From Minisyncoccota bacterium (GTDB lineage: Bacteria > Patescibacteriota > Minisyncoccia > UBA6257 > GWB1-50-10): a stretch of DNA of 64,000 nt. Shown piece after piece: positions 1,226 to 44,756 of the stretch. The notes under the pieces are model-generated. The model did not search any database. It was not told the DNA's origin and was given only the letters and a program-made list of their open reading frames with translations. The stretch spans positions 222,905-286,904 of the forward strand of contig JAYRXE010000037.1 of NCBI GenBank assembly GCA_041917695.1, written 5' to 3'. Each line of letters opens with the position of its first letter. Positions within the stretch are counted from its first letter, which is position 1. The position numbers and the translations under genes were made by a program.

Positions 1226-2537
1226 GCGAGAAGAAGAAATGCTTCACCGTCCGCATCATGATAAGCGTATCGAAAAAGAAGGAGCGGTTTTTGATGTAAA
1301 AGATATCGTACCGCAACTTTTCGTACGCTTCCTCGACTGAAGCCGACGGTTTGAAATTTATTTGCGCCCAGCCGGTGATGCCGGGAGCGATGGAGTGGCG
1401 CATGTCGTAGTAGGGAAGCGAAGAATATTTTTCGGCGAGTTCCGCGCTCTCGGGACGGGGGCCGGTGAACGAGATGTCCCCGCGAAGGATGTTTACGAGT
1501 TGCGGGATTTCATCAAGGTGAGTGTAACGGAAGACGCGCCCGAGAGGCGTCACGCGGGTATCGTTTTTTTCGGTCCATGCGGGGCCGATTTTGTCTGCAC
1601 CGTCCACCATAGTCCGGAATTTATAGAGAGTGAACTGCTTATTGCGGCGCCCCATGCGGGGTTGCGTGTAAAATATGGGGCCGCGGGACGAGATGGCAAT
1701 GAGGAATGCTACAAGGATGCCGAACGGAAGCAGGACGAAGAAGAGTACGAGACTCACCACAAAATCGAGCGCCCGCTTCACGAGTTCGTAAAACGGCTTT
1801 CGAGTCGAGATGTGATCGATGACCCATTCAGGGTCCACGATTTCGAGCGGGGTCTTCTCAAACACCTCCTCATAAAAATCGATAAGGCTTGCGATGCGGA
1901 CATCGTGGGACATGAGCGGATAGATTGATTTTGAAAAACGGGAGTCCTCGAGAATCTCGCGCGTCGCGACGGCGAGCGTGTTCTCGCGCCGCGCATCGGT
2001 TTTCATCGCAGCGAAATCTTTTTCTTCGGGATTTTCAATCCATTCCTCGATGGCATATCCGATATGAGGGTTCGAACGAAGGTATTCCTCGATGTGCGGA
2101 CGAAGCGGCGAATGGCCGAAAAAGCGGACGCGCAACGCGCCGATTGAAAACGCTTGGAGGAAGAAGAGGCGGAATGCCCCGTCAAGGACGAAAAAGATGA
2201 GACCGGTGACGATAAGGTTCGTCTTCGGCGTCAGCAGGAAAAAGTCGGGGAAGAGGTAGAGCAGAACGATTGAAACAATGCCGCTCGTTGCGAGCGCCTG
2301 GAAGAGCATGCGGAGCATTTTTTTGCGGGTGCTGAACGTCGCGGGGCGGTACAGGTCGAGCAGGTAAAATACGAAGAACCACAGCAAAAAAAGAGCCGAA
2401 AAAGGGTAGAGATGGGTCGAAAGGCGCCCGCTGAGGTCGGCAAAGCCATACCGTGCCACGAGGGCGGCGGCGAGGGCGACATAGAGGAAAATTACGTCGC
2501 CGAGCATGAGAAACAGCCGCTTTATCTTCCAGAGCAT
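1218..2537 (-). CDS. Undecaprenyl-phosphate sugar phosphotransferase (WbaP/WcaJ-like bacterial sugar transferase).
   Basis: N-terminal transmembrane segments plus a C-terminal PF02397-like core (GPRP...TGWAQI, RMGRRNKQFTLYKFRTM, DEIPQLVNILRGDISFTGPRPE). I chose the start at MLWKIKRL (ATG at 2537). The 158-aa upstream extension of ORF 1218..3011 overlaps the divergent dsbA-like gene and looks non-coding. The stop overlaps the flippase start. Confidence 0.8.
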   Translation of the reverse strand: MLWKIKRLFLMLGDVIFLYVALAAALVARYGFADLSGRLSTHLYPFSALFLLWFFVFYLLDLYRPATFSTRKKMLRMLFQALATSGIVSIVLLYLFPDFFLLTPKTNLIVTGLIFFVLDGAFRLFFLQAFSIGALRVRFFGHSPLRPHIEEYLRSNPHIGYAIEEWIENPEEKDFAAMKTDARRENTLAVATREILEDSRFSKSIYPLMSHDVRIASLIDFYEEVFEKTPLEIVDPEWVIDHISTRKPFYELVKRALDFVVSLVLFFVLLPFGILVAFLIAISSRGPIFYTQPRMGRRNKQFTLYKFRTMVDGADKIGPAWTEKNDTRVTPLGRVFRYTHLDEIPQLVNILRGDISFTGPRPESAELAEKYSSLPYYDMRHSIAPGITGWAQINFKPSASVEEAYEKLRYDIFYIKNRSFFFDTLIMMRTVKHFFFSHE

Positions 2538-2601
2538 GGGATAGATATATTCAACCCTTATCGTAGCAGGAATTTGGCTTCCGTGAAGCGCGCGGATTTT
2601 G

Positions 2602-2630
2602 TTGCGGTTGCCCGGGGCGGTAGGTATAAT
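2602..2630 (+). promoter_or_regulatory. Putative sigma70-like promoter for the DsbA-like gene (TTGCGG-N17-TATAAT).
   Basis: TATAAT at 2625-2630, about 15 nt upstream of the ATG at 2646, and a weak -35. It sits in the divergent intergenic region. Confidence 0.3.
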
Positions 2631-2645
2631 GAAAAGAAAAGTCAT

Positions 2646-3383
2646 ATGGAAAACCAACCACCTGTGAAGAAAGAATGGCTCTTGCCAGTAAGTATCGTAA
2701 TCGCCGCGCTCCTTATCGGCGGCGCGATTATTTGGTCGACGGGGAAGAAAGCGGAACTTGCCGCAAATCCCGGAGAAGCGACTGACGCAGAACTCGCCAA
2801 GCTTGCGGAGAAAGTATTGCCCGTTACCGATGCCGACCACATATGGGGCGATCGGAACGCTCCCGTGAAGATTGTCACGTTCACCGATCTTGAATGCCCG
2901 TATTGCCAGCAATTCCACGGCACGATTCGCCAGGCGCTTGCGGAATACGACGGCCGCGTTGCATTCATCTATCGCAACCTGCCGCTTACGATGATTCATC
3001 CCGGAGCGCAAGAAAAGGCTGAAAGCGCGGAATGCGTCGCCGAAATCGGCGGGAATGAGAAGTACTGGGATTTTGTGGGAAAGATTTTCGATATGTCTTC
3101 GGAACAGGCGGTTGACGTGTCAAAGCTTCCTGAGATTGCCGCGGGCGTCGGCGTCGATAAGGCGGCGTTTAGCGCGTGCGTTTCAAGCGGCAAATTCGCC
3201 GATAAAATAGATGCCGAAAGCAAAGAGGCGCAAGAAGCGGGAGGACAGGGAACGCCCTATAGCATCATCATCTCGAAAGAAGGGAAGCGGTACCCTGTTC
3301 CGGGAGCGTATCCGTATGAATCGACCGGTCCCGGCGTGCCGTCCTTTAAGAGCATGATCGAGGATGCTCTTGCGGAAAAATAA
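2646..3383 (+). CDS. DsbA-like thioredoxin-fold thiol:disulfide oxidoreductase, membrane-anchored.
   Basis: N-terminal transmembrane helix (WLLPVSIVIAALLIGGAIIW), a CPYC active-site motif, and a DsbA-like helical insert. Start taken at MENQPP rather than the upstream ORF start. Confidence 0.7.
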   Translation: MENQPPVKKEWLLPVSIVIAALLIGGAIIWSTGKKAELAANPGEATDAELAKLAEKVLPVTDADHIWGDRNAPVKIVTFTDLECPYCQQFHGTIRQALAEYDGRVAFIYRNLPLTMIHPGAQEKAESAECVAEIGGNEKYWDFVGKIFDMSSEQAVDVSKLPEIAAGVGVDKAAFSACVSSGKFADKIDAESKEAQEAGGQGTPYSIIISKEGKRYPVPGAYPYESTGPGVPSFKSMIEDALAEK

Positions 3384-3396
3384 AGTTCTCTATTTC

Positions 3397-3564
3397 ATGC
3401 GGCCATCCTTTTGGACATTTCTCGGTGTCGGTGCGTGGGTCTTTCTCTCGCCCTGGATACTGGGTTTTTCTTCCATAAACCTCGCCCTGTGGTCGAATCT
3501 TCTTGCTGGCGCGCTTATCGTCGTACTCGCGGTTCGTGCGTTCGGTTTCCCGAAAGGGGAGTAG
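3397..3564 (+). CDS. Small membrane protein with an SPW motif (SPW-repeat-like).
   Basis: MRPSFWTFLGVGAWVFLSPWILGF... has two transmembrane helices and an LSPW motif. The ATG overlaps the dsbA-like 3' end. It is translationally coupled to the next gene by TAG..ATG. Confidence 0.45.
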   Translation: MRPSFWTFLGVGAWVFLSPWILGFSSINLALWSNLLAGALIVVLAVRAFGFPKGE

Positions 3565-3567
3565 GAT

Positions 3568-3810
3568 ATGGACCCGGTCATCATCTACACGACGCCGGCG
3601 TGTTTCTATTGCAAGATTGCAAAGGAATTTTTGCGCCGCAACGGAGTCCCGTTTGAGGAACGCGATGTGGACGCAAATCCCGCGTACGTTCATGAGCTTG
3701 AGGAGAAATCCCACCAGCGGGGAGTGCCGGTGATTGAGGTTGGTGACGAGATATTCGTCGGCTTTGACCGGCCGGCAGTCGCCCGCGCGTTAGGTATCGA
3801 GAACGGATAA
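3568..3810 (+). CDS. Glutaredoxin-like protein (NrdH/YruB-like).
   Basis: 80 aa, IIYTTPACFYCKIAKEFL has a CxxC motif, a Grx fold, and GVP..P pattern. An SD-like AAAGGGGA lies upstream. Confidence 0.75.
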   Translation: MDPVIIYTTPACFYCKIAKEFLRRNGVPFEERDVDANPAYVHELEEKSHQRGVPVIEVGDEIFVGFDRPAVARALGIENG

Positions 3811-3860
3811 TTTTTTACGAAACCTTTCCCGCGGCGGGAAATTGTTAAATAATTCAATTC

Positions 3861-4793
3861 ATGCTTTATGACGTGGTCATTATTGGTGGCGGTCCGGCCG
3901 GAGTATCTGCTGGGGTGTATGCCGCGCGGAAAAAATTAAAGACGGTAGTAGTGACGGACGTTTTCGGCGGGCAATCCGTGGTTTCAAACGACATCCAAAA
4001 CTTCATCGGCACGCCGTCCATTTCCGGCTTTGAATTGGCGCAAAAACTCGAGGGGCATCTGCGCGCGCAGGAAGACGTCCGTATCGTCCTTGGCGACAAG
4101 GTTTCGAAAATCGAAAAAAAGAAAAACGAGAATGGGGCGCTTTCGTTTGCAATAACGACCGAGCGCGGAGAAACCTTCGATGCGCGCGCGGTGCTTATCA
4201 CCGCCGGTTCGAATCGGCGCCGTTTGGACGTGCCGGGAGAACGGGAACTCGACGGGAAGGGCGTTGCCTATTGCGCGACCTGTGATGCCCCGCTTTTTCG
4301 CGGCAAGCGGGTCGCTGTTGTCGGCGGAGGAAACTCCGCGCTTGAAGGCGCGCGGGATCTTATCCCGTACGCATCGGAAATATATCTTTTCGTGCGAAGC
4401 GCCTTGAAAGGCGACCCCGTGACGCAGGAAAAGGTTTTAAGCGATGCGAAGGTGCATCTCGTTTGTCCCGCTGAGATTGTTGAAATACGCGGAAGCGAAG
4501 CAGTGGAAAGCGTCCGTTACCGTTTGAGGGATTCCGGTGAGGAACGCGATCTTCCGCTCGACGGCATATTCATCGAAATCGGTTGGACGGCCAATGCAGG
4601 CATTGCGGAGGGGCTCGTCGAATTGAACGCCGGCGGAGAAATCGTCGTCGACCATAAGACCCAGCGCACTTCAGCCGAAGGCATTTGGGCCGCGGGGGAC
4701 GTGACCGACGCGCTCTATAAGCAGAACAACACGTCCATGGGGGACGCCATCAAGGCGGTTTTGAACATCAACGACCATCTGCACGCGTCGTAA
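3861..4793 (+). CDS. trxB: Thioredoxin-disulfide reductase.
   Basis: GGGPAG FAD motif, CATCDA redox-active disulfide, GGGNSA NADPH motif, 310 aa. Confidence 0.9.
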   Translation: MLYDVVIIGGGPAGVSAGVYAARKKLKTVVVTDVFGGQSVVSNDIQNFIGTPSISGFELAQKLEGHLRAQEDVRIVLGDKVSKIEKKKNENGALSFAITTERGETFDARAVLITAGSNRRRLDVPGERELDGKGVAYCATCDAPLFRGKRVAVVGGGNSALEGARDLIPYASEIYLFVRSALKGDPVTQEKVLSDAKVHLVCPAEIVEIRGSEAVESVRYRLRDSGEERDLPLDGIFIEIGWTANAGIAEGLVELNAGGEIVVDHKTQRTSAEGIWAAGDVTDALYKQNNTSMGDAIKAVLNINDHLHAS

Positions 4794-4830
4794 CGTTTTC
4801 CCGCGCCTGGAGTTTGGTATACTTAATGTA

Positions 4831-7434
4831 ATGAAGCGTTTTGCGAACACCTCATTTTTCGTTGCAGGCGCCGTCTTGCTTTTGCTCGCGCTTTTTTCAG
4901 TGGCTGCGGCGCAATCGCTCCAGCGCATCAACTTCGTTCCGCAAACCTCCGACCCGGTCACCTGCAATTCGACCTCGACGCGGGGCAGTATTTATTTCTC
5001 TTCTTCAACCGGCGAGATCAAGGTGTGTAACGGCACCTGGAGTTCGGTGGGTACGGGAAACGGCGCGAATTATTTTACCCTTTCGGGTACGTCGCTTTAT
5101 CCGACCTCGACTTCGTACAATATTGGCATCGGCACGACTACGCCCGCCTACAACCTTACCGTCGTAGGGACCGGGTACTTTTCCCAGCCCGTTTCGGTCG
5201 GCACGCCGGTCGCGGCTTCCGATGCGGCGACGAAAACCTACGTTGACACGGCGGTAGCCGCCGCGGGAGGGTACTGGACCTTAAACGGCACGTCGCTCTA
5301 TCCAACATCGACCTCGTATAAGCTCGGGGTCGGTACGAGCACGCCTGCACATCCGTTCGTGGTAGCTCCTGCTGGCACGAATGCCGCCTTGCTTGTGAAC
5401 TCAAACGGTCAAATCGTGGCAGGGGCAAATGCGCATCTCAATTCAACATCAACCGCTTTTGCAATCGTGAACGCATCTTCAACGGCGACAGCCCTTACGA
5501 TTTACCAGCAGACCCCTTCAGGCAACCAAGACATATTAACCGTTTGCCGTGGAGCCGTTACCGCGAACTGTCAGCAACGTATTTTCTACATCAATCAATA
5601 CGGGGAACTCCGCCTTGGCCAGACGAATGCGACTGGTCAGCTTACCATTGATGCAAACGGCAACTTTACGCAGATTATAAGCTTAGTGAATAGCCACGCG
5701 TCGGGCGCAACACTTTTATCTGTGGGTGGAGCACAGGGAGGTACTCTTCGCTTACAGTCGAGCGTCCCTGCAGACATTACGCAAACGCCCGCCTTTTCAG
5801 TGTCTGGATCTATCGGGCCAAAATCCGTATTAGCATTCAATGTTGGCGGTACGGGGTCATATCCCTTGTTGATGCAGCCGGTGGGCGGATATGGGTATAC
5901 CAATCCATACAAGGCAACCAGTTTTTACGGCCCCTCAAACATTAATGTCGCGGGCGGGGGAGGCACGAATCCTTCCGCGAATGCGCTTACGGTGGAGAAT
6001 GGTAATGTTGTCATTTATAACGCGAATTCATGGGGTGGCGGCGCCGGAAGCGAATTGCTCGATGAGTCGGCGGGGCCGACCACTACGAAATGGTCGCGGT
6101 CGGGGAACTTTACGTTGCCCGGCACAACCGCTGTTTTTTCCGGAGCGGGCACCGGTTACATCACGCAGACCACGGGAAATATGTTGGGAAGCGTGAAACC
6201 GAATACGCAATATCAACTGAGCTATACCATTACTGGTGCATCTGGTTCTTGCTCGACATTTATCAACGATCCTACGCAAGCAGCGACCACGACCGCTCCT
6301 GCTTCGATTCAATCGCATGACACCAGCTGGCGCCGTTTCGGCTCAACAAACTATTCGACTATTACGAATGGAACGCATTACTTCTTCTTCCGATCTGCAG
6401 AGGGTGGATTGCCCGCGAATTTCTCCTTGGGAGGCTTTTGTAGTTCTGGAGGTTTCACTATTACCGCCATTTCGCTGAAGGAAGCGCGTGGCGGCAATCT
6501 CTACTTCGGCGCTGGAGGCGGAGTTCAGATTGGAACCTCCACACTTGGGCAATCAGGCATCACTGTGTACGGCTCTTCAACTACCGCGACTGATTGGTCC
6601 ATTCACACGTTCAAATCCGACGGTACGTCGACGTTTGTGATTAGAAACGACGGGAACGTCGGCATCGCGTCCTCTTCGCCGGGGTATGCGCTTACTGTAA
6701 ATGGCACGGGATATTTTTCGCAACCGGTTACCGTTGGTACCCCCACATCCGCAAACCATGCAGCGACGAAAGCCTATGTCGATTCGGCGGGAGGGGGCGC
6801 GTGGGTGTCGACTTTGGGGATGCTCTATCCATCATCGACTTCTTGGAGCGTGGGTATTGCGACCACCACTTTTGCGACGTCGACTTATAAACTTGCCGTA
6901 GCAGGGGACGTGCTCTTAGGTGACGGGTCGGGCACGGATTTGGTCGTAGGCCCCACGGGCGCAGGCAAAATCGATGCGGGCGAAATCGACCCGGTATATA
7001 CGATTGGCGGGAAGCGATACGCCACGTATCTTCCGGCCATGACGGGTTTGAAGGAAGAGACGACCGGTACGCTCATGCTCCGCAAAAACGGCGACGCTTA
7101 TTCGAATACGATTGATTTCAAGAAAGCAAAAGAGGGAAGTGACACGTGGCTTTTCTCGCGCGTGACGAACCTTTCGCGCAACTTCGATTCGCTTGTCGCG
7201 CTGCTTACGCCGAATTTCAAGGGAAGCGTGTGGTATGAGAAGGATGAGGCGAATCTCACGCTTACCGTTTACGGCACGAACCCGGGTGAAGTGAGCTACC
7301 GCCTTACGGCACGGCGCTTTGATTGGGAATCATGGCCACAAAACAATGCGGTCGAAGGCGACCATGAAGGCTATAATCTCGATAAGCTTATCTTCTCCGA
7401 CGGCAGGGTGGATTTGGGCTCGCTTATCCGATAA
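4831..7434 (+). CDS. Giant secreted repeat protein with tail-fibre-like repeats and a conserved C-terminal domain.
   Basis: Sec signal peptide (MKRFANTSFFVAGAVLLLLALFSVAAA). Repeated motifs YFTLSGTSLYPTSTSY-IGIGTTTPAY and GYFSQPV-VGTPT..AATKTYVD resemble phage tail-fibre motifs. The C-terminal IDPVYTIGGKRYATY domain is shared with the 9820..12078 paralog. A -10-like TATACT lies at 4817-4822. Confidence 0.8.
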   Translation: MKRFANTSFFVAGAVLLLLALFSVAAAQSLQRINFVPQTSDPVTCNSTSTRGSIYFSSSTGEIKVCNGTWSSVGTGNGANYFTLSGTSLYPTSTSYNIGIGTTTPAYNLTVVGTGYFSQPVSVGTPVAASDAATKTYVDTAVAAAGGYWTLNGTSLYPTSTSYKLGVGTSTPAHPFVVAPAGTNAALLVNSNGQIVAGANAHLNSTSTAFAIVNASSTATALTIYQQTPSGNQDILTVCRGAVTANCQQRIFYINQYGELRLGQTNATGQLTIDANGNFTQIISLVNSHASGATLLSVGGAQGGTLRLQSSVPADITQTPAFSVSGSIGPKSVLAFNVGGTGSYPLLMQPVGGYGYTNPYKATSFYGPSNINVAGGGGTNPSANALTVENGNVVIYNANSWGGGAGSELLDESAGPTTTKWSRSGNFTLPGTTAVFSGAGTGYITQTTGNMLGSVKPNTQYQLSYTITGASGSCSTFINDPTQAATTTAPASIQSHDTSWRRFGSTNYSTITNGTHYFFFRSAEGGLPANFSLGGFCSSGGFTITAISLKEARGGNLYFGAGGGVQIGTSTLGQSGITVYGSSTTATDWSIHTFKSDGTSTFVIRNDGNVGIASSSPGYALTVNGTGYFSQPVTVGTPTSANHAATKAYVDSAGGGAWVSTLGMLYPSSTSWSVGIATTTFATSTYKLAVAGDVLLGDGSGTDLVVGPTGAGKIDAGEIDPVYTIGGKRYATYLPAMTGLKEETTGTLMLRKNGDAYSNTIDFKKAKEGSDTWLFSRVTNLSRNFDSLVALLTPNFKGSVWYEKDEANLTLTVYGTNPGEVSYRLTARRFDWESWPQNNAVEGDHEGYNLDKLIFSDGRVDLGSLIR

Positions 7435-7492
7435 AATAGGCTTTTGAAGATGCGCCGGAAGCGCTCTTCCGGCGCTTTTCTTTTCCGAACAT

Positions 7493-9235
7493 ATGAAACT
7501 GCTTTTCAACTATCTCACGCAATACAAAAAATTCGTTTTCCTCGTGTTGGGGCTCACTGCCGTAAACCAGATTTTTTCGATGCTGGACCCGTTTATTTTT
7601 CGGTACATCATCGACAACTATGCCACGAAATTCGCCGAGTACTCGACGGCGGAATTCCTGCGGGGCGTTATCGGCCTCGCGGCGCTTGCGGTCCTCGCCG
7701 CCCTTGTTTCGCGCATCGCGAAAAATTTCCAGGATTATTATTTGAACGTCATCACCCAGCGGTTAGGCGCGCAGATGTATGCGGACGGCGTGCGGCACAC
7801 GCTCGCATTGCCCTTTGCCGAGTTTGAAGACGCGCGGAGCGGAGAGACGCTTGGCGTGCTCCAAAAGGCGCGCGCAGATGTGGAACGCCTCATAAGCCTT
7901 TTTGTGAACAACCTTTTTATGACGCTCGTCGGCATCGTTTTCGTAACGTTTTATGCATTCTCCGTACATTGGCTCGTCGCGCCTATATATCTCCTGATGA
8001 TTCCGCTTATCGCCGGCGTGAGCCTTTTCATGAGCCGGCGCATCAAGGCCGTGCAGAAATCAGTCGTCGCCGAGACGACGGCGCTTGCCGGTTCAACCAC
8101 GGAATCCCTGCGGAATATCGAGCTCGTGCGTTCTTTGGGGCTTTCCGAGCAGGAGATCTCGCGGCTCAATTCGACGACGGAGAAGATCCTGGGGCTGGAA
8201 TTGAAGAAGGTGAAATACGTGCGCCGTTTAAGCTTCATCCAGGGAACCATCGTAAACACCATCCGCACCGGCCTCATGATCTTCATGATGTACCTCATCT
8301 TCACCCAGCAGATTACGGTGGGACAGTTTTTCACGCTCTTTATCTATTCGTTTTTCATTTTCGGTCCCATGCAGGATTTGGGGAACCTCATCAATATCTA
8401 CCGCGAAACAGAAGTTTCACTCGATAATTTTAAGCATTTACTTGAGAAAGAGACGGAAAGGACCCCGGCGGCTCCCGCCGAGGTCGGCGAGATTCAGAGC
8501 CTTTCCTTTGCCGGCGTTTCTTTCAAGCATCGGACGGCGAAGGAGTCGGCGGTGAAGGAGGTTTCCTTCGAAGCGAAGGCGGGAGAGACGGTCGCCTTTG
8601 CGGGACCCTCGGGATCGGGAAAGACGACCATCGTAAAACTCCTCGTGGGACTCTACGAACCCGCCGGGGGGCGCGTCCTTTATAACGGCATTGATTTTGC
8701 GACGCTCGACCGGCAGAGGGTGCGCGAGAAGATCGGTTTTGTCACCCAGGACACCCAGCTTTTTTCCGGGACCATCCGCGATAATTTGAAATTCGTAAAC
8801 CCTTCCGCGACCGATAGCGAGTGTCTGAAGGTGCTCCAGGAGGCGCAATGCGAGAACCTGCTCGCCCGCGGCGGAGAAGGCCTGAATACGCGCGTCGGCG
8901 AAGGCGGCATGAAGCTTTCAGGAGGCGAGCGCCAGCGCCTTTCCATCGCCCGCGCGCTTCTCCGGAAGCCCGCCGTGCTCGTATTCGACGAGGCAACGTC
9001 CGCGCTTGATTCGCTGACTGAAGAGGAAATCGGGAAGACGGTGCGGAAGATCAGCGCGTCGGGAAAGCACATTACGGTCATGATCGCGCACCGCCTTTCG
9101 ACCATCATGCATGCCGATCGCATTTACGTGCTTGAGAAGGGGGAAATTGTCGAAGCCGGCTCCCACGAGAAGCTTTTGAAGAAAAAAGGCTTGTATTACG
9201 CCATGTGGCGCGAACAGATCGGCGAGCGCGAATGA
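7493..9235 (+). CDS. ABC transporter, fused permease/ATPase exporter (MsbA-like).
   Basis: Six-transmembrane N-terminal domain, Walker A GPSGSGKTT, signature LSGGERQR, Walker B VLVFDEATSALD, H-loop IAHRL. Confidence 0.9.
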   Translation: MKLLFNYLTQYKKFVFLVLGLTAVNQIFSMLDPFIFRYIIDNYATKFAEYSTAEFLRGVIGLAALAVLAALVSRIAKNFQDYYLNVITQRLGAQMYADGVRHTLALPFAEFEDARSGETLGVLQKARADVERLISLFVNNLFMTLVGIVFVTFYAFSVHWLVAPIYLLMIPLIAGVSLFMSRRIKAVQKSVVAETTALAGSTTESLRNIELVRSLGLSEQEISRLNSTTEKILGLELKKVKYVRRLSFIQGTIVNTIRTGLMIFMMYLIFTQQITVGQFFTLFIYSFFIFGPMQDLGNLINIYRETEVSLDNFKHLLEKETERTPAAPAEVGEIQSLSFAGVSFKHRTAKESAVKEVSFEAKAGETVAFAGPSGSGKTTIVKLLVGLYEPAGGRVLYNGIDFATLDRQRVREKIGFVTQDTQLFSGTIRDNLKFVNPSATDSECLKVLQEAQCENLLARGGEGLNTRVGEGGMKLSGGERQRLSIARALLRKPAVLVFDEATSALDSLTEEEIGKTVRKISASGKHITVMIAHRLSTIMHADRIYVLEKGEIVEAGSHEKLLKKKGLYYAMWREQIGERE

Positions 9236-9239
9236 TATA

Positions 9240-9779
9240 ATGGAATCAATGGACCGCCGTGAACGTATTGTCGTCATTGCCGCGTTATGCGTCTTTCTCG
9301 CCATCATCGCGTTCGGTATTTACTACAAAATGTGGGGGGGCAAGCCCTATACGGGGCCGCTTGAGGAAAACCAATTCACGAATGAGCTTACGCCGAACGA
9401 ACTGCTGAATCTCCAGGAAAACAAATTCACGCCTGAAGTGCCGAAGAACGCGACGGAGACAACTCCGCAGGCCGAAGCTCCCGCCGCGCCGAATGTCTCG
9501 GCCAAACTCGGTTTTTACGATATCGATATGTCGAAAGACGGCTTTTCGCCCTCGTCCGTCGCGGTGAAACGGGGGAATTTGGTGAAGCTCCGCGTGACGG
9601 CCGTAGACGGCGATTACGATTTCGTGATTCCGTATCTTGAAATGTCGGTCTCGATAAAGAAAGGGGAGACGCGCCAGGTTTCGTTCCAGGCGGACGCGGA
9701 AGGCACGTTTCTCTTCGAATGTTCGACAGCGTGCCCAAGCAATAAGAAGATAAGCGGCATGCTGGTCATGATTCCCTGA
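9240..9779 (+). CDS. Membrane-anchored cupredoxin-like domain protein.
   Basis: N-terminal transmembrane helix, then a beta-rich C-terminal domain ending FLFECSTACPSNKKISGMLVMIP. This has a cupredoxin-like pattern but no canonical His ligands. Confidence 0.55.
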   Translation: MESMDRRERIVVIAALCVFLAIIAFGIYYKMWGGKPYTGPLEENQFTNELTPNELLNLQENKFTPEVPKNATETTPQAEAPAAPNVSAKLGFYDIDMSKDGFSPSSVAVKRGNLVKLRVTAVDGDYDFVIPYLEMSVSIKKGETRQVSFQADAEGTFLFECSTACPSNKKISGMLVMIP

Positions 9780-9819
9780 TTTTCCCGCTTCTTTTCTGTT
9801 ATAATTTTATAGATAGCAC

Positions 9820-12078
9820 ATGAATCGAAAGAGATTCCGGCAGATCGTCGTTTTTCCCGTATCCGCGTTCGCGCTCTTCCTTATCGGCGCGAGCCTTGTT
9901 TTTGCATTTAACGGCCCGACTAACTCTCCCGGGGTGGGGAGCGGAGCGTTCACGATAGACGGCAACGGCAACGTCGGCATCGGCAGTGCGACGTCTACCC
10001 CAACCACGGGCAGTTTTGGAGCGGTCTTCGGCGTCTCTTCAACGACGAATCCGGCATTTTATTTGAAGAATCCCGGCGGCAGGGGATTCGTGCTGTATTC
10101 GAACACCGCTTCGACGAGTTTCGCCATTTTTGACGAGACGGCGGGAGCAGACCGACTTTTCATAAATTCCTCCGGCAACGTCATCGTTCCCGGCAATATT
10201 ACCGCGACGGCTTTTGTCGGAACGCTTTCGGGAGACGTCTCCGCGGCGAACGTCACTTCGGCCGTCTTTGGGTCGCTTCAAGGCAATGGCGCATTCGCTT
10301 TTCCCGGTTCGCTCGGTATCGCAACCTCGTCAAAGACGGGTCTTCCGCAGGAACTTTCCGTGTACGGCACGGGATATATCCGCGACGGCCTGGGCGTCGG
10401 CATCGCAAGCCCCACGAGCAAAGTACACGTCTATTCGACCTCAACCGCTTTCGACGCGCTTCTTGAGACCTCCGGAGGCATGAAGACGGCCGTTGGCATT
10501 GACACGACCGGCGGTTACGCGGGAACCACCTCGAACCATCCGTTCCGCCTTTTTTCGAATAACGCCGAAAAATTGCGGGTGGCGACCTCCGGCAACGTGG
10601 GTATCGGAACGACGACCCCCGCCTACGCGCTCTCCGTTTCGGGAGAGATATACGCGACTGGTTCTTCGACTGCCGCCGCCTTTTGTCTTTCCGGTTCGTG
10701 CCAGACTTCTTGGACGGGCATGGGCCAGTGGACGAGCGTCACGGGCGGCATCTACTACATGGCGAACGTTTCCGTAGGCACTTCGACGGCAACCGCCTAT
10801 CCGCTTTTGGTTTCCACCTCGACCGATTCGCTTTTTGCGATCCGCCGTGCGGGTTCCACGTATCCGACCATCTTCAAACAGGGGACCGACGGCGTCCTCG
10901 TCGTGAATAATGCCAACCTCGATACATTAACCCTTAAGGACGGTTCGGTCGGTATCGGCGTTACGAGTCCCGGACAGAAGCTTGCAGTCGCTTCCTCAAG
11001 CGGCATCAGCGTCGACGTGACGGGCGGGCGTATCGTGAATCTCGGTGCCCCGTCTTCGGGAAGCGATGCCGCGACGAAGACCTATGTCGACAACGCCGTC
11101 GTGGGCGCGGTGAATTATTTCGCGCTTTCCGGCACGAATCTGTATCCGACCTCGACGACGTACGATCTCGGCGTGGGAACGACGACGCCGAGTTACAAGA
11201 TAGACGCGGTGGGAGATGTGAACGCGAGCGGAGCCTACCGTATCGCGGGCGCATCCGCCCTTGAAATCACGGGCGGACAGCTCCGTGTCGGAACGTCCTC
11301 GGCCATCACGTCGCTTGCACTTCACACGGGAGGCACCCAGCGGTTGGTAATCAATTCGTCGGGGCAAGTCGGCATCGCCTCATCGTCGCCGGGGTACGGT
11401 CTCGTCGTCGAAGGCACCTCTTATTTCTCCCAGCCGGTTTTCGTCGGTACGCCGACGAACCCCAGCCACGCGGCGACAAAGACCTACGTTGATTCGCTTT
11501 TTGTGGACGGAAGCTTCACGACGCTTACGGTTTCGGCGACAACGACGCTGAACGGTACGACTACGGTAAACGGAAACTGGAACTTGGCGGGTGCCGCGCT
11601 CGGAAACATAAATTTGAACAGCAATAACATCGTGGGCGTGAACAAGCTCACTGTTTCGACAATCGACCCGGTGTATGAGATCGCGGGGCGGAAATACGCC
11701 ACGTACGTCTCCGACACCATCGGCTTGAAGATGGAGGCCTATGGCAAGGGCCGCCTCGCTCCCGCGCACGGTTCCTATGAATACTCACTCGATTTCGCGA
11801 ATGCCCGCGAAGGCAGCGAATTGTGGCTTTTCTGGCAAACCGCAAAGGAAGGCGCGGATATGGAAGACATCGTGCTTACACTCACCGCAGAAGGCGGTAA
11901 AAGCCCGTTGTGGTATGAGCTTCGCCCTGCAGAAAAACGGATTGTCGTGAAGGGCGACGCGCCGGTCGCGTTTTCGTACCATATCGTGGCGCCCCGCCAT
12001 GACGCGGGCGAGTGGCCGACCGTCATAACGCCGGAGCATGACGACGGGAGTCGTCCGACCAGGCTGAAACTCCGCTAG
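9820..12078 (+). CDS. Giant secreted repeat protein, paralog of 4831..7434 (tail-fibre-like repeats).
   Basis: Signal/anchor (MNRKRFRQIVVFPVSAFALFLIGASLVFA). Same GTNLYPTSTTYDLGVGTTTPSY, SYFSQPVFVGTPT..HAATKTYVD motifs and the same C-terminal IDPVYEIAGRKYATY domain. TATAAT at 9801-9806 lies just upstream. Confidence 0.8.
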   Translation: MNRKRFRQIVVFPVSAFALFLIGASLVFAFNGPTNSPGVGSGAFTIDGNGNVGIGSATSTPTTGSFGAVFGVSSTTNPAFYLKNPGGRGFVLYSNTASTSFAIFDETAGADRLFINSSGNVIVPGNITATAFVGTLSGDVSAANVTSAVFGSLQGNGAFAFPGSLGIATSSKTGLPQELSVYGTGYIRDGLGVGIASPTSKVHVYSTSTAFDALLETSGGMKTAVGIDTTGGYAGTTSNHPFRLFSNNAEKLRVATSGNVGIGTTTPAYALSVSGEIYATGSSTAAAFCLSGSCQTSWTGMGQWTSVTGGIYYMANVSVGTSTATAYPLLVSTSTDSLFAIRRAGSTYPTIFKQGTDGVLVVNNANLDTLTLKDGSVGIGVTSPGQKLAVASSSGISVDVTGGRIVNLGAPSSGSDAATKTYVDNAVVGAVNYFALSGTNLYPTSTTYDLGVGTTTPSYKIDAVGDVNASGAYRIAGASALEITGGQLRVGTSSAITSLALHTGGTQRLVINSSGQVGIASSSPGYGLVVEGTSYFSQPVFVGTPTNPSHAATKTYVDSLFVDGSFTTLTVSATTTLNGTTTVNGNWNLAGAALGNINLNSNNIVGVNKLTVSTIDPVYEIAGRKYATYVSDTIGLKMEAYGKGRLAPAHGSYEYSLDFANAREGSELWLFWQTAKEGADMEDIVLTLTAEGGKSPLWYELRPAEKRIVVKGDAPVAFSYHIVAPRHDAGEWPTVITPEHDDGSRPTRLKLR

Positions 12079-12104
12079 TCGTTTGCTATAATTATTCTGA
12101 ACTC

Positions 12105-12710
12105 ATGACGAAACAGCAGAAGATAATCTTTTCCGTTTCCGCGGGCGTTGTCGTCCTCGCCATCATCGGGTATTTGGCGTACACGGGAAACTACAAAGAC
12201 CTGCTTGATTACAAGGGCCAGCAGGGAACCGAGACGCAGGTGCGTCTTGATAACGGAGAACTGGTGAACGCGGTCGTGGTTGCGACGGGAACCTCGGCGA
12301 TCACCGAAAGCGGCAAGGTGGTGAATATCGCGACCGGCCAGGTGGCGAACAACAGCGAAGAAGCGGGGAAGCCCGGCGCGCCCCAGCAATCAAACCCCGT
12401 CTCGAAAGAGCAGATTCCTCCGACCGTCATCAAGCTCACGGCATTCATGGGAGGTTTTACGCCGAACACCTTTGATGTCCGCGCGGGAGATCCCGTTTCG
12501 CTTTCGCTTACGGCAGGCGACGATCGCGTATACGTCTTCGCCTTTGACGACGTTTCCCTTTCCGGCGTCCGCGTCGGCGTCGGTCCCGGCATCGACCGCA
12601 CGCGCATCATCGTTTTCAACGCGCCGAGTGCGAAAGGCGAATATACGTTCTATTCCGACGTGCCCGGTCAGCGAAACGCGGGGCTTGTCGGGAAAATGAT
12701 CGTCCGCTAA
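12105..12710 (+). CDS. Membrane-anchored cupredoxin-like domain protein, second copy.
   Basis: N-terminal transmembrane helix, Gly/Pro linker, C-terminal GEYTFYSDVPGQRNAGLVGKMIV. This is a cupredoxin-like pattern with Cu ligands replaced. Same position relative to the giant protein as 9240..9779. Confidence 0.55.
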   Translation: MTKQQKIIFSVSAGVVVLAIIGYLAYTGNYKDLLDYKGQQGTETQVRLDNGELVNAVVVATGTSAITESGKVVNIATGQVANNSEEAGKPGAPQQSNPVSKEQIPPTVIKLTAFMGGFTPNTFDVRAGDPVSLSLTAGDDRVYVFAFDDVSLSGVRVGVGPGIDRTRIIVFNAPSAKGEYTFYSDVPGQRNAGLVGKMIVR

Positions 12711-12718
12711 CCCCTGCA

Positions 12719-12748
12719 AAGCCCTTCGGGGCTTTTTTGTTTTCGGTA
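12719..12748 (+). terminator. Rho-independent terminator.
   Basis: aaagcccttcggggcttttttgtttt: GC stem, TTCG loop, T-run. Confidence 0.6.
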
Positions 12749-12758
12749 TACTGTACCT

Positions 12759-14090
12759 ATGAGGAAATTGTTCCATCTTTCGAGACGCGCCGCACGGCAC
12801 GCCTTTCGTTTCCTTACCTCGCCCGGTTTTATCGTCTTTCTCGGGATTTCATTCCTCATCCTGGTATTCCTTTTCGGGGGACGGAATCTCATCCGTTCCT
12901 GGACGCGCGCTTTCTTCGCCGAGCGCGGATTCCAGAATCTTGAGCGCCTCGCTCCCTCGGTTGCGACCCGCGAGAACGGGGAGAATTTGCTCGCTTCGAG
13001 CTTCTCCGACCTTTTTTCGGGAACCGGCTGGATAGATTCCGAAAAGACGAATCTCTACCGTGACAATCGTGCGGAGGCGGTCCTGTGGGAACCGGCTTTT
13101 TCCTGGAACCTTTCGGGCGCAAAAACCGAATCTTTGACTTCAAAAGAGTGCATCGGGAATCGCTGCGCCGAAATCTCGGGAGGGAACCTTGTGTTGTACG
13201 GTGCACGCGTCGTTTTGCCCCGCGCGCTGGAATACGACAGCCGGAAGCTTGCTCTCCACGCAATGCGGGATGCGTGGCTTGTGGGCGGAGTCGTCGAAGA
13301 AAAAGGCGAGTGGAAAGGGTATCTATATTCCTTCGACGGCAGGGAATTTACGCCGCTGTGCGGCGGAGCCGTCTTTACCTCGCAGTACGAGGCTTCGCCG
13401 GGTCTCGGCGGTGACGATGCGCGCGCCCTTTTCCTCTACGGAGCGTACGAGGGGAAGGCGATTGAGGTTTGGCAGAACAGGTGCGAGGACGTTTCGCGGC
13501 TCTTTGGCATACGCCTTATGGACGAAGGGTTTGACCCGGTCATCATCCGTCCCGAGGGAACGGATTGGTTCGTATTTTCCCGCAACGGCTCAAAACGGGT
13601 TTTCATAAAAGCCTTTCCGGATTCGGCGACCGGCGCCATTGCCGGCACTATCGATCTCGGCGCGTATCTTCGCCGGGAAGGTATGAACGGCATTGCGTTT
13701 CGAGGCGTGCGCGGACAGGATGGCGCGCTTGCGGTTTCGCTTCTTGTGGAAGACGGAAAAGAAGAGAGCGGGTTTTGGATTGACCGGGGCTTTAGCGCCG
13801 CGAATCGCGGGACTATAGCGTCGCGCAATTTGAATACCTATCCGGGAAGCCTTACGCGCCGCGCAACGATTGTTTCAGCCGATTTGTATCCCGGGAGCAC
13901 GTCGCCGGAATTGTATCTCTCGAATAATGGAAGGGATTGGACGCCTGCGCGAATCGGCGAGGAAGTGGTTTTTAAGGATAAAAACGGCAAAGAGCTCTAT
14001 TGGAAGGCTGATTTTCCGAAAGGCTCGGGAGATGTGAGCCCTTACCTGAAGCGTATTCGGGTGGACTTCAAGGTGCTCCAAAACCCCTAA
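12759..14090 (+). CDS. Hypothetical membrane-anchored protein.
   Basis: 443-aa ORF with an N-terminal transmembrane segment (FIVFLGISFLILVFLFGG). Coding-like composition, no recognisable motif. TATACT -10 directly upstream of the ATG. Confidence 0.55.
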   Translation: MRKLFHLSRRAARHAFRFLTSPGFIVFLGISFLILVFLFGGRNLIRSWTRAFFAERGFQNLERLAPSVATRENGENLLASSFSDLFSGTGWIDSEKTNLYRDNRAEAVLWEPAFSWNLSGAKTESLTSKECIGNRCAEISGGNLVLYGARVVLPRALEYDSRKLALHAMRDAWLVGGVVEEKGEWKGYLYSFDGREFTPLCGGAVFTSQYEASPGLGGDDARALFLYGAYEGKAIEVWQNRCEDVSRLFGIRLMDEGFDPVIIRPEGTDWFVFSRNGSKRVFIKAFPDSATGAIAGTIDLGAYLRREGMNGIAFRGVRGQDGALAVSLLVEDGKEESGFWIDRGFSAANRGTIASRNLNTYPGSLTRRATIVSADLYPGSTSPELYLSNNGRDWTPARIGEEVVFKDKNGKELYWKADFPKGSGDVSPYLKRIRVDFKVLQNP

Positions 14091-44660: not shown

Positions 44661-44756
44661 TGAGCGGAAAAGGATTCGAACCTCTGGCCTCCAGATTCCG
44701 GAAACCCCCCACGGGATTGTTTAGTCTGGCGCTCTGCCGGTCTGAGCTATCCGCCC
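44661..44756 (-). tRNA. tRNA gene (96 nt) with an insertion of about 22 nt in the anticodon loop. Anticodon undetermined (CGG/Pro is one possibility).
   Basis: Minus strand: GGGCGGA-TA-GCTC-AGACCGGCA-GAGC-G-CCAGA-[CTAAACAATCCCGTGGGGGGTTTCCGGAA]-TCTGG-AGGCC-AGAGG-TTCGAAT-CCTTT-TCCGCTC-A. All stems pair. The 29-nt loop region contains a hairpin AATCCC/GGGGTT. Confidence 0.45.

Follow-up and report, generated by a model that had tools for sequence, protein, structure and literature searches.

The locus, from an ultrasmall bacterium of the candidate phyla radiation, contains a four-gene cassette, S1-G-S2-H443, in which S1 and S2 are small membrane-anchored cupredoxins, G is a giant fiber protein (G2 in this DNA), and H443 is an anchored protein of 443 residues. 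Comparison of predicted genes showed this cassette to be the conserved unit, recurring whether it is sought from G, from H443, or from the S genes. The explanation that we favor, giving it about an even chance, is that the locus would encode a Sec-exported surface fiber resembling phage tail fibers, whose membrane-tethered partners would assemble or anchor it. Fiber and cassette would probably constitute an uncharacterized cell-surface attachment structure, which, so far as the searches show, appears confined to Patescibacteria. The sequence features described in the original prediction were borne out, but not the architecture that it proposed, two copies of a giant-small module on either side of an ABC exporter, in whose place stands the cassette.

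Gene order and transcription signals

In the window (the whole stretch of 64,000 nucleotides analyzed), six genes lie on the + strand in the order G1 – ABC exporter – S1 – G2 – S2 – H443, and all six ORF calls match those of a public assembly. Genes, domains, and signals are the following:

4818-4823, +: -10-like hexamer TATACT, 7 nt 5' of the G1 ATG, implying a leaderless or very short-leader transcript
4831-7434, +: G1, ORF of 867 aa, predicted secreted fiber protein
6928-7431, +: G1, C-terminal domain of the family, about aa 700-867 (family HMM, E 6.6e-56), with IDPVY at aa 719-723 (nt 6985-6999)
7452-7475, +: intrinsic-terminator-like hairpin directly 3' of G1, 10-bp stem with 8 G-C pairs and a T tract
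7493-9235, +: ABC exporter, ORF of 580 aa, half-transporter of the MsbA/HlyB type
9236-9241, +: exact TATAAT, 7 nt 5' of the second S1 ATG (9249)
9240-9779, +: S1, ORF of 179 aa, transmembrane (TM) anchor plus CuA-like cupredoxin
9800-9805, +: exact TATAAT, 14 nt 5' of the G2 ATG
9820-12078, +: G2, ORF of 752 aa, predicted secreted fiber of the cassette
11587-12075, +: G2, C-terminal domain of the family, aa 590-752; carries the conserved motif ...NKLTVSTIDPVYEIAGRKYATYV..., with IDPVY at nt 11662-11676, ahead of a beta-sandwich of about 110 aa
12087-12092, +: TG-extended TATAAT, 12 nt 5' of the S2 ATG
12105-12710, +: S2, ORF of 201 aa, TM anchor plus plastocyanin/auracyanin-like cupredoxin
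12718-12735, +: terminator-like hairpin 3' of S2, 7-bp stem, then a T tract
12759-14090, +: H443, ORF of 443 aa, type-II membrane-anchored, present as had been predicted

The locus is flanked by the housekeeping genes trxB, recR, dnaB, and cysS, and a window-wide search that included the family HMM found no more paralogues of its proteins. A small protein had been expected within 40 nt after each giant. This is true of G2, with S2 starting 26 nt downstream, whereas G1 is followed by a terminator and then by the ABC gene; S1 lies upstream of G2, at a distance of 40 nt.

The -10-like boxes are found 6-14 nt ahead of the ATGs, being TATACT for G1 and exact TATAAT for S1, G2, and S2, and the only complete sigma-70-type site that the region was found to have includes the box of S2. 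Each giant thus has its own box at the ATG, as first described, although the pattern is a habit of the entire window, in which 9 of the 21 TATAAT hexamers precede a long ORF by 6-15 nt. The true start of S1 is probably the second ATG, at 9249, because orthologues align from that codon. Moreover, S2 and H443 are split by a terminator-like hairpin and a separate -10 box precedes each gene, which leaves co-transcription uncertain.

The exporter (Pfam ABC_membrane and ABC_tran) is a generic MsbA/HlyB-like half-transporter scoring below every NCBIfam equivalog cut-off. Its type is the one predicted, but it does not recur in relatives as part of the module: among 58 related loci only two ABC matches were obtained, neither adjacent to a fiber gene, and no exporter precedes S1 in the relatives with a readable upstream flank (L003, L036, L052, and L062). 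From gene neighborhoods, then, it appears to be an unrelated neighbor and not a conserved cassette member. The layout proposed earlier implied type-I-like secretion of the giants by this exporter, and both its position between G1 and S1, ending 4 nt ahead of the S1 ORF, and its family-level likeness to HlyB and bacteriocin exporters could be read in that sense. Nonetheless, the giants carry N-terminal Sec-type signals instead of C-terminal type-I signals, Pfam detects no C39 peptidase domain in the exporter, and a strong terminator parts its gene from G1, which, together with its absence from the cassette in relatives, makes such a role very improbable.

Fiber proteins and their family

G1 and G2 are paralogues, as had been proposed, with 39% identity over the C-terminal 267 aa (E 3e-40) and a second repeat block in common (E 8e-18). 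G1 has three copies of the motif LYPTST and two of YFSQPV, and G2 has one of each; AATK.YVD is found twice and IDPVY once in either protein. Both have a high content of Thr, Gly, and Ser and begin with a hydrophobic signal-like segment; G1 contains six cysteines and matches no Pfam or NCBIfam family. The N terminus of G1 resembles a signal peptide that would be cleaved after AAA at about residue 27 according to the -3/-1 rule, and that of G2 resembles one with putative cleavage between VFA and FNGPT. The resulting mature N terminus of G2, F-x-G-P-S/T, is seen repeatedly across the fiber family.

The idea of secreted, fiber-like giants also gains from comparison with phages. The short motifs that make up the shafts of G1 and G2 are those of phage tail fibers (..NVGIGTTTP.Y.L.V.G.. 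and ..AATK.YVD..), G2 matches PHROG tail-fiber families (E 1.7e-8 and 2.6e-7), and tblastn gives weak matches to phage tail-fiber and virion structural genes (E 6e-7 to 8e-4) that cover aa 23-565, being limited to the shaft. Also, the modeled C-terminal domain of G2 resembles domains at the distal end of phage receptor-binding proteins. A Peptidase_S74 chaperone domain, suggested earlier as a check, was looked for with Pfam and not found.

These sequence and fold similarities, along with a small gene after the fiber gene as in phage fiber/chaperone pairs, might indicate that the giants are tail-fiber genes of a prophage or tailocin and the region a phage remnant. This is hardly credible considering the signal-peptide-like N termini of the fibers, the housekeeping flanks, and a chromosomal location conserved across divergent genomes, with no further phage gene recognized in the region. 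Moreover, the C-terminal domain has no match among IMG/VR viral contigs or in the phage collection, where the tblastn matches are restricted to the shaft.

A profile of this domain retrieved no fewer than 1,216 clusters, 952 of them at E <= 1e-30, corresponding to an unannotated family in which the domain is C-terminal in every case and protein length goes from 166 to 2,705 aa. In the family module, a near-invariant motif, I.GVNKLTV.TIDP[LV]Y.I.G.KYATY, precedes the beta-sandwich of about 110 aa and lies some 136 aa from the C terminus in 147 of 151 representatives. A hydrophobic N terminus is present in 88 of 121 complete members, 38 of which have the motif A-F/Y-x-G/A/N/P-P. Where named, the source genomes are nearly all Patescibacteria, and so are the metagenome-assembled genomes of the 58 loci, apart from two labeled gammaproteobacterial and a few labeled merely 'bacterium'. 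In Patescibacteria the family is multi-copy and tandem paralogues are common.

A family so widespread and multi-copy could instead form a non-adhesive coat, S-layer-like or glycocalyx-like, with S1, S2, and H443 as envelope structural proteins and no host attachment; the Thr/Ser/Gly-rich composition would suit glycosylation, and the conserved module at the C terminus might bind the wall or form a lattice. We consider this decidedly unlikely, because lengths and shafts that vary so extremely, and the common tandem paralogues, would be expected of diversifying adhesins or receptor-binding proteins more than of lattice proteins, the modeled fold resembles distal receptor-binding domains, and Pfam finds no SLH or other wall-binding domain.

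The conserved cassette and its membrane-anchored partners

When the search starts from G, an S and/or H gene adjoins the fiber gene in 12 of the 58 loci. Two further, independent starting points were used: from H443 homologues (29-47% identity), G and S2 are adjacent in all four contexts, and from S-family matches a fiber gene is adjacent in three of four new contexts. The pairing of fiber and cupredoxin in relatives, which had been set as a check, is therefore conserved from the three starting points. On the other hand, 45 of the 58 fiber loci have no S or H neighbor, so fibers of the family do not generally need S or H. In two loci (L048 and L052) the order is S1-G-S2-H-S1'-G'; G2 is colinear with the first fiber, and the C-terminal domain of G1 is nearest (47-50% identity) to the second, G'. 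Judged from these alignments, G1 is a solo G'-type paralogue with its own terminator, predicted to be a separate transcription unit outside the cassette.

The subtype of S tracks position wherever checked, S1 lying just upstream of the fiber gene and S2 downstream. Upstream copies (e.g., L003, L036, L048, L052, L062, L063, L065, and L067) have S1-type features, and those directly downstream (e.g., L001, L009, L013, L030, L048, L052, and L060-L064) have the HMM score or the ligand pattern of the S2 type. The gap between S1 and the fiber gene in relatives is often just 1-7 nt, and S2 often directly adjoins H (L048 and L015, 3-4 nt apart). Shared ancestry can partly account for conserved gene order in small, syntenic Patescibacteria genomes, and recR-dnaB-cysS and DsbA/Grx/TrxB are likewise conserved neighbors in relatives. 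The thiol-redox genes of the latter group (DsbA-like, glutaredoxin, and TrxB) recur upstream.

The partners of G2 are single-pass membrane proteins with beta-rich domains facing outward. The cupredoxin fold proposed for the small proteins is supported by Pfam Cupredoxin_1 (S1, 32.6 bits; S2, 28.2 bits; gathering cut-off, 27) and by a family profile that matches solved cupredoxins in the PDB with E 4.8e-16, including auracyanins, plastocyanins, the N-terminal cupredoxin of nitrite reductase, and CuA domains. In S1, a TM anchor and a Pro/Glu-rich linker precede a CuA-like domain (about aa 93-179) with additional matches to COX2 (Pfam, 23.6 bits) and to the NosZ C-terminal region and CoxB (NCBIfam); it has no histidine but retains a CxxxC pair, and the His ligands are missing in every S1 orthologue compared. 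In S2, anchor and linker lead to a plastocyanin/auracyanin-like domain (about aa 104-201; NCBIfam match, plastocyanin). S1 and S2 are distinct, anciently diverged paralogous subtypes.

The loss of copper ligands noted at the outset holds for this clade, where in S2 they changed from H to Y, C to S, and H to Q, with the axial E to L, and where L062 and L063 are ligand-less as well. It does not hold elsewhere, since S2 orthologues in most other genomes retain His/Cys/His, with Glu conserved as the axial residue, and are probably still copper-binding. Between the window and L062/L063, identity is 75-77% for S2, 64-70% for G, and 47% for H443. Ligands gone and conservation still above that of G and H443 suggest a copper-independent role of S2 in this clade.

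H443 has a TM segment at about aa 23-41, an ectodomain modeled as a beta-propeller (about aa 112-350), and a C-terminal beta-sandwich with the Asp-box-like motif LSNNGRDW. It has no Pfam match, and the 54 positions invariant among its homologues include no His and no cofactor motif.

Such proteins could also be an extracytoplasmic redox or copper-handling module that shares a conserved envelope neighborhood with fiber genes and does not interact with the fiber; in it, an anchored blue-copper electron carrier would serve either a beta-propeller enzyme or a step in copper trafficking. Established biochemistry offers well-known pairings of a propeller with a cupredoxin, as in methylamine dehydrogenase with amicyanin or in NosZ. 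The type-1 ligands of most S2 orthologues, the anchor-linker-cupredoxin layout of membrane-anchored blue copper proteins, with which the PDB matches agree, the close S2-H spacing, and the upstream thiol-redox genes fit this alternative. However, the ligand-less S2 is the best conserved of the three proteins compared, no S1 orthologue has His ligands, H443 has no invariant His, cofactor motif, or Pfam match, and the strict correlation of S subtype with position and the short S1-fiber gaps suggest coupling to the fiber and not to H. This alternative seems unlikely to us.

Proposed assembly of the surface fiber

For the surface fiber system that we favor, the fiber would be exported unfolded via Sec, with the signal peptide cut between A and F-x-G-P, and would fold and oligomerize outside the cytoplasm, without ATP. 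S1, S2, and H443, tethered in the membrane, would be an assembly and docking platform holding the fiber on the cell. The conserved family motif may be an oligomerization or processing core, and the more variable terminal beta-sandwich a distal ligand-binding tip contacting a host cell or particle. The role in host or episymbiont contact that was suggested at the outset is conjectural. S2 would act with no need of copper in this clade, and copper binding would probably be kept in others. Such a platform is comparable to the Ig-fold chaperones of pili and to phage tail-fiber systems, where a small assembly-chaperone gene follows the fiber gene. Against it, His/Cys/His in most S2 orthologues suggests a function in redox chemistry or with copper, for which an assembly chaperone would have no use.

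The supposition that the components are uncharacterized agrees with public records, where G1, G2, and H443 are all labeled 'hypothetical protein', and with the literature, in which no description of such a system in Patescibacteria was found and blue-copper searches led to general cupredoxin papers only.

Finally, 11 loci that are more distant have, in the same slot right after the fiber gene, an ORF for another protein, conserved, secreted, and about 195 aa long; a small partner encoded downstream is thus found repeatedly.

Gene order around the fibre gene

The four-gene unit S1-G-S2-H, where the gene of a giant fibre-like protein (G) stands between those of two small cupredoxin-fold proteins (S1 and S2) and is followed by that of a larger anchored protein (H), is conserved. 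In the window the unit reads S1-G2-S2-H443, and the identical order is observed in the relatives' loci L003, L048, L052, L062 and L063, with partial cassettes in 9 further loci. Public assemblies, including a 680-kb contig, carry the identical locus with matching gene calls.

Features of the fibre locus in the window
4831-7434, + strand: G1, giant fibre-like protein, 867 aa
7452-7475, 3' of G1: strong intrinsic-terminator-like hairpin with a 10-bp stem
7493-9235, + strand: ABC exporter (MsbA/HlyB-type half-transporter), 580 aa
9240-9779, + strand: S1, small cupredoxin-fold protein, 179 aa
9820-12078, + strand: G2, giant fibre-like protein, 752 aa
12105-12710, + strand: S2, small cupredoxin-fold protein, 201 aa
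12759-14090, + strand: H443, anchored protein, 443 aa

The original prediction was of a duplicated module, each giant being followed by a small anchored protein, with the ABC exporter between the two copies. However, the 3' side of G1 carries the hairpin and then the ABC gene; no small protein is found there, and no cupredoxin partner adjoins G1 in the window. G2 is flanked by S1, 40 nt upstream, and by S2, 26 nt downstream, and no extra copies of the fibre, cupredoxin or H443 families are present within the 64-kb window. A recent tandem duplication is ruled out, S1 and S2 being only 22% identical and the giants belonging to different subtypes. The exporter does not keep its assigned place either, since it is missing upstream of S1 in L003, L036, L052 and L062, and across the 58 fibre loci only two ABC matches are observed, both non-adjacent.

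The exporter was discarded as a system component on the grounds of synteny and of the terminator after G1. Type I (ABC-dependent) secretion of the giants was also rejected, the ABC linkage being unconserved and the signal sequences N-terminal.

When the fibre domain is taken as the starting point, S- and/or H443-type genes adjoin the fibre gene in 12 of 58 loci, including most of those closest to G2, and 45 of the 58 have neither neighbour. From the H443 homologues (29-47% identity), the fibre gene followed by S2 and H is found in all four contexts examined, and from the S-family matches a fibre gene adjoins in three of four new contexts. The cassette belongs to one sub-lineage and the fibre family is phylum-wide. 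Upstream of the fibre gene, the checked copies show the features of the S1 type, often at a gap of 1-7 nt, and those directly downstream are of the S2 type. In L048 and L052 the order is extended to S1-G-S2-H-S1'-G', with a second fibre (G') preceded by an S1-type copy (S1'), and L003 has S1-G-S2-H. In L062 and L063 the full unit lies next to recR-dnaB-cysS, as in the window. Some of this synteny may be the mere conserved gene order of small genomes, because recR-dnaB-cysS and the DsbA/Grx/TrxB genes are conserved neighbours as well.

On the upstream side of the S1-fibre unit, both the window (2412-4793) and relatives (L065 7768-8982; L003 3425-4414) repeatedly have thiol-redox genes (DsbA-like, glutaredoxin, thioredoxin reductase). 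Between trxB and S1 the window has G1 and the ABC gene, and L003 has a single 235-aa ORF.

Regarding transcription signals, exact TATAAT hexamers stand 7 nt before the second ATG of S1 (9249), which is probably its true start, 14 nt before the ATG of G2 and 12 nt before that of S2; in G1, TATACT lies 7 nt 5' of the ATG. The -10 boxes first noticed at the starts of the giants are therefore present, but they are a habit of the whole window and not specific to the module. Of the 21 exact TATAAT hexamers on both strands, 9 lie 6-15 nt before the ATG of an ORF of at least 100 aa (examples at 2625, 9236, 9800, 12087, 18663, 18635, 33125, 44950 and 55832), which suggests that leaderless or near-leaderless mRNAs are common in this genome. 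Terminator-like hairpins are found 3' of G1 and 3' of S2.

The fibre family and its C-terminal domain

G1 and G2 are paralogous, their C-terminal 267 aa being 39% identical (E 3e-40) and their second repeat block matching at E 8e-18, and the motifs first noticed in them (LYPTST, YFSQPV.VGTP, AATK.YVD and IDPVY) are all found. Neither giant matched a Pfam or NCBIfam family, nor did the C-terminal domain match any of their models; PDB sequence relatives were found neither for G1 nor for this domain, and in public records G1, G2 and H443 are all 'hypothetical'.

Both proteins belong to a secreted-type phage-fibre-like family whose domain is seen almost only in Patescibacteria. A word-indexed search gave 5 relatives, and their profile, run on 1.84 billion representative proteins, recovered at least 1,216 clusters (50% identity) at E <= 1e-3, and 952 at E <= 1e-30. 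Among all matches listed the domain forms the very C-terminal end of the protein, whose length ranges from 166 to 2,705 aa. The 58 fibre loci, which come from a one-genome-per-species scan, are nearly throughout from Patescibacteria MAGs (Paceibacter, Kaiser-, Adler-, Nomura-, Uhr-, Brenner-, Spechtbacteria and others), two having gammaproteobacterial labels and a few merely 'bacterium'. The motif I.GVNKLTV.TIDP[LV]Y.I.G.KYATY....G is present in 147 of 151 representatives, at a median of 136 aa from the C-terminus, with Lys(-7) and Gly(+19) each conserved at 99%, Ile(+5) at 98% and Tyr(+10) at 95%, and an invariant Asp-Pro at the junction between shaft and module. Both giants end in such a module of about 136 aa, made of KLTV.TIDP[LV]Y.I.G.KYATY and a beta-sandwich (family HMM, E 6.6e-56 for G1 and 1.9e-50 for G2).

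In the AlphaFold model, the G2 domain is a beta-sandwich with one short helix (pLDDT 70, core 85-95), the family motif being poorly modelled in the monomer. The matches of this model to viral models in Foldseek are modest but consistent, with a best E of 4e-5 and TM 0.35-0.44; they are minor tail, tail-fibre and depolymerase C-terminal domains. Among close orthologues, residues 520-640 of G2 (last shaft repeat and motif) are the best conserved, at 80-93%, the terminal sandwich being at 50-57%.

The shaft of G2 is similar to those of phage tail fibres, although the similarity is weak and composition biased. It matches the PHROG tail-fibre families 9942 (E 1.7e-8) and 18345 (E 2.6e-7), and by tblastn residues 23-565 match 17 phage records with 24-33% identity (E 6e-7 to 8e-4), the matched genes being mostly annotated as tail fibre, virion structural protein or 'chaperone of endosialidase'; the last 190 residues gave no phage match in this search. 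The likeness extends to tail fibres and receptor-binding proteins that have a chaperone gene (T4 gp37/gp38, lambda Stf/Tfa), whose shaft motifs match G2, and to tailspikes and fibres whose distal domains resemble the C-terminal beta-sandwich. In contrast to phage fibres, the patescibacterial proteins have Sec-type signals and are encoded on the chromosome among housekeeping genes, where no further phage gene was recognised, so that neither a phage or prophage structural cluster nor a virion is indicated. Also, the C-terminal domain is not found in the viral contigs of IMG/VR, where 7 pattern matches gave no confirmed case.

Peptidase_S74 (PF13884) had been named as a family to check for the giants, but they have no S74 match, and their sole Pfam match at E <= 1, to Bactofilin (E 0.55), is spurious. 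The S74 fibres and tailspikes likewise carry one conserved C-terminal module on highly variable shafts, here with an invariant motif at the junction; however, the confidently modelled part of the present domain is a beta-sandwich, and no helical domain is predicted.

At their N-termini, both giants have a hydrophobic segment preceded by a short basic stretch; after the hydrophobic segment, A-F-x-G-P-S/T...G.G.G recurs in many family members (in G2, ...LVFA|FNGPT). By the -3/-1 rule, the giants would be exported by Sec and cleaved by signal peptidase I. The C-terminal domain of G1 is closest (47-50%) to that of G' in L048 and L052, and G2 is colinear with the first fibre of these loci; therefore the giants are old paralogues of separate subtypes.

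Two variants of the architecture were observed. In L060, different fibre-like proteins of 574 and 497 aa (3417-5141 and 11409-12902) directly precede each fibre gene, and they have NVGVGTTSP repeats in common with the fibres but a Cys-rich C-terminal domain (...WISNGPPGYT..ANDC...FACCK); thus, the shaft can be joined to alternative terminal domains. In L001 (4667-10465), a family member of 1,932 aa has a type-IV-pilin-like N-terminus (KGFSLAELVIYLGILG), the same as in P0014, in place of the Sec signal peptide, which suggests a pilus-tip or minor-pilin form of the fibre.

Cupredoxin-fold and propeller partners

S1 and S2 are membrane proteins of cupredoxin fold whose genes keep to fixed sides of the fibre gene. 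The cupredoxin-like fold anticipated for the small proteins was borne out by Pfam Cupredoxin_1 (PF13473; 32.6 bits for S1 and 28.2 for S2, cut-off 27) and by solved cupredoxins, which are matched by a 19-sequence profile of the S family: the N-terminal cupredoxin of Hyphomicrobium nitrite reductase (E 4.8e-16), Bacillus anthracis 'Cupredoxin 1' (E 4.7e-12), CuA domains (about E 1e-10), auracyanins and plastocyanins. Further matches are COX2, the CuA/C-terminal region of NosZ and nitrosocyanin for S1, and plastocyanin for S2. In the alignment the two are old, distinct cupredoxin subtypes, and they form position-specific orthologous groups.

The S1 type resembles the CuA domains of cytochrome oxidase subunit II and NosZ and keeps the C-x3-C, some orthologues having Met at +11. 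However, S1 is histidine-free, DGDYD occupies the first His-ligand position, and none of the S1-type sequences examined has either His ligand of CuA. It is therefore misleading that S1 is publicly named 'cytochrome/quinol oxidase subunit 2', and S1 should not be annotated as cytochrome oxidase subunit II; S2 is publicly named 'cupredoxin-like'.

For S2, the proposed loss of the copper ligands applies to the window, and also to L062 and L063, but not to most orthologues. In most genomes the S2 type has a blue-copper pattern (..TH.F.F.. / ..F.C..PGH..RGE.G.M) with His, Cys, His and an axial Glu, being complete in 9 of 10 orthologues of the first alignment and also in L060, L061, L064 and L066.

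S2-type orthologues with His/Cys/His
L048 6382-6951
L001 10531-11082
L060 9314-9928
L066 7169-7720

In the window's S2, by contrast, the ligand columns are occupied by Y, S and Q and the axial one by L, so the metal site is gone. The identity of this S2 to those of L062 and L063 is 75-77%, in comparison with 64-70% for G2 and 47% for H443. That the ligand-less protein is the better conserved one speaks for a function in this clade that is under constraint and does not depend on copper. The clade offers a natural experiment, where a blue-copper-type protein has lost its metal site and the constraint is still strong. With respect to membrane-anchored blue copper proteins (auracyanin, halocyanin, sulfocyanin, plastocyanin-like), the S2 type has a similar layout of N-terminal anchor, linker and cupredoxin domain. 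It differs from them in its genes being linked to a fibre gene and not to a respiratory or photosynthetic chain, and in the axial Glu of the orthologues instead of Met.

The position of this conserved Glu (C..PGH..RGE.G) in the membrane-anchored orthologues of S2 is taken in the nitrite-reductase cupredoxin (2dv6) by the axial Met, and the Glu would make an unusual type-1 copper site.

H443 is a membrane-anchored propeller. Its model (pLDDT 71, above 85 for residues 130-250) shows N-terminal helices, the first being the membrane anchor, then a beta-propeller and a C-terminal beta-sandwich. No Pfam or NCBIfam family is matched and only insignificant matches to PDB sequences are found; the 8 homologues have 54 invariant positions in common, none of them His. 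One Asp-box-like motif recalls known beta-propellers (integrin alpha, bacterial propeller lectins, BNR/Asp-box), but H443 lacks a Pfam family and a repeat signature, and its matches are generic to any propeller.

A split nitrous-oxide reductase, with H443 as the propeller and S1 as the CuA part, was considered and rejected because H443 has no invariant His and S1 no CuA His ligands.

A candidate platform for fibre assembly

Eleven of the more distant fibre loci have, 3-72 nt after the fibre gene, an ORF for a secreted protein of about 195 aa that is highly conserved (...LSKGSGTFVIDHPLDPKNKLLYHSFVESPDVKNIYDG...VSWQVTGIRHD...).

The ~195-aa partner in distant fibre loci
L019 3122-3751
L020 10546-11139
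L021 7453-8046
L025 1057-1653
L029 1199-1792
L037 6867-7565
L038 15049-15630
L049 3403-3987
L051 1000-1602
L053 496-1071
L058 1917-2540

This partner has no Pfam family. Its layout parallels that of the fibre C-terminal domain, and in hhalign a possible homology of the two scores E 0.0016-0.003 at a probability of 10-16%, the controls being at E 0.2-0.4.

Taken together, the fibre would be exported via Sec, then fold and oligomerise outside the cell, with S1, S2 and H443 as a putative membrane-tethered platform for its assembly and docking, and the terminal sandwich may be the distal binding tip. What points to a platform is the tight coupling between S1 and the fibre, the strong constraint on the metal-free S2, and the ~195-aa secreted protein that fills the downstream slot in distant lineages. 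Surface-tethered Greek-key beta-sandwiches that make metal-free protein-protein contacts are known in ephrin ectodomains, early-nodulin-like phytocyanins and PapD/FimC; they would serve as a precedent, by analogy and with no homology claimed, for a non-redox role of S1 and S2. In phages, moreover, the fibre gene is followed by an assembly-chaperone gene, and here likewise a gene of about 200 aa lies directly 3' of the fibre gene; the resemblance would be one of gene order, since the present partners, unlike Tfa and gp38, are membrane-anchored cupredoxins and a beta-propeller, and not their homologues. Nonetheless, a serious rival is that S2, alone or together with H443, acts in redox or copper handling, because the copper ligands are kept in most other genomes, the ligand-less clade being the evidence on the opposite side.

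Apart from type IV pili, little is reported to be known of the means by which ultrasmall Patescibacteria recognise their hosts and stay attached to them (PMC12206443). A broader proposal joins the platform to this problem, the cassette being a dedicated host-contact organelle of Paceibacteria-type Patescibacteria that combines fibre folding by tethered cupredoxins, a TIDP.Y switch and copper coupling; as a whole, we regard it as improbable. Within it, a fibre similar to phage receptor-binding proteins would be folded outside the cell and held at the membrane by the tethered cupredoxin-fold proteins, which, recruited from copper proteins, would correspond in function to the assembly chaperones of phage tail fibres. 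Also, the invariant TIDP.Y junction could act as a switch for self-processing or oligomerisation, and in clades with a copper-binding S2 fibre assembly or adhesion could be coupled to the extracellular redox or copper status.

Our literature search found no description of such a system in Patescibacteria or Parcubacteria, and for blue copper it returned general cupredoxin papers only. Surface fibres or adhesins with accessory proteins and a phage-like receptor-binding architecture are familiar; what is new is the C-terminal domain family and the cupredoxin/propeller cassette. The former is a large unannotated family that marks phage-fibre-like surface proteins across the phylum, and the latter provides, in one lineage, candidate genes in which a fibre is linked with a propeller and a pair of cupredoxin-fold membrane proteins.

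Other small genes were observed at these loci. After the second fibre of L048 (11322-13201) and L052 (11260-13274) there is a third gene pair, formed by a small N-terminally hydrophobic and probably membrane-anchored protein (176 and 162 aa, respectively) and a secreted protein of 450 or 507 aa that starts ...A(S/N)CSP..GG.HIV; in the set scanned, both L052 proteins and the small L048 protein had no Pfam match. Within or beside the cassette, further small genes are found in L052 (3844-4188, probably also 1783-2154), L006 (7291-7656) and L061 (4577-4930). The L061 copy matches PF05635 (23S_rRNA_IVP, a four-helix bundle), and the L052 and L006 copies were assigned by eye only, their N-termini being similar. 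The same family includes Avd, an accessory protein of DGRs, and no reverse transcriptase was noticed near these genes. Finally, the lone Rfam match in the window is a tRNA of 96 nt (44661-44756, - strand), a length that would fit a long variable arm, and downstream of the cysS cluster, at 18680-19963, lies a 427-aa protein with a lamin-tail domain (PF00932, LTD), which occupies the same place in L062.
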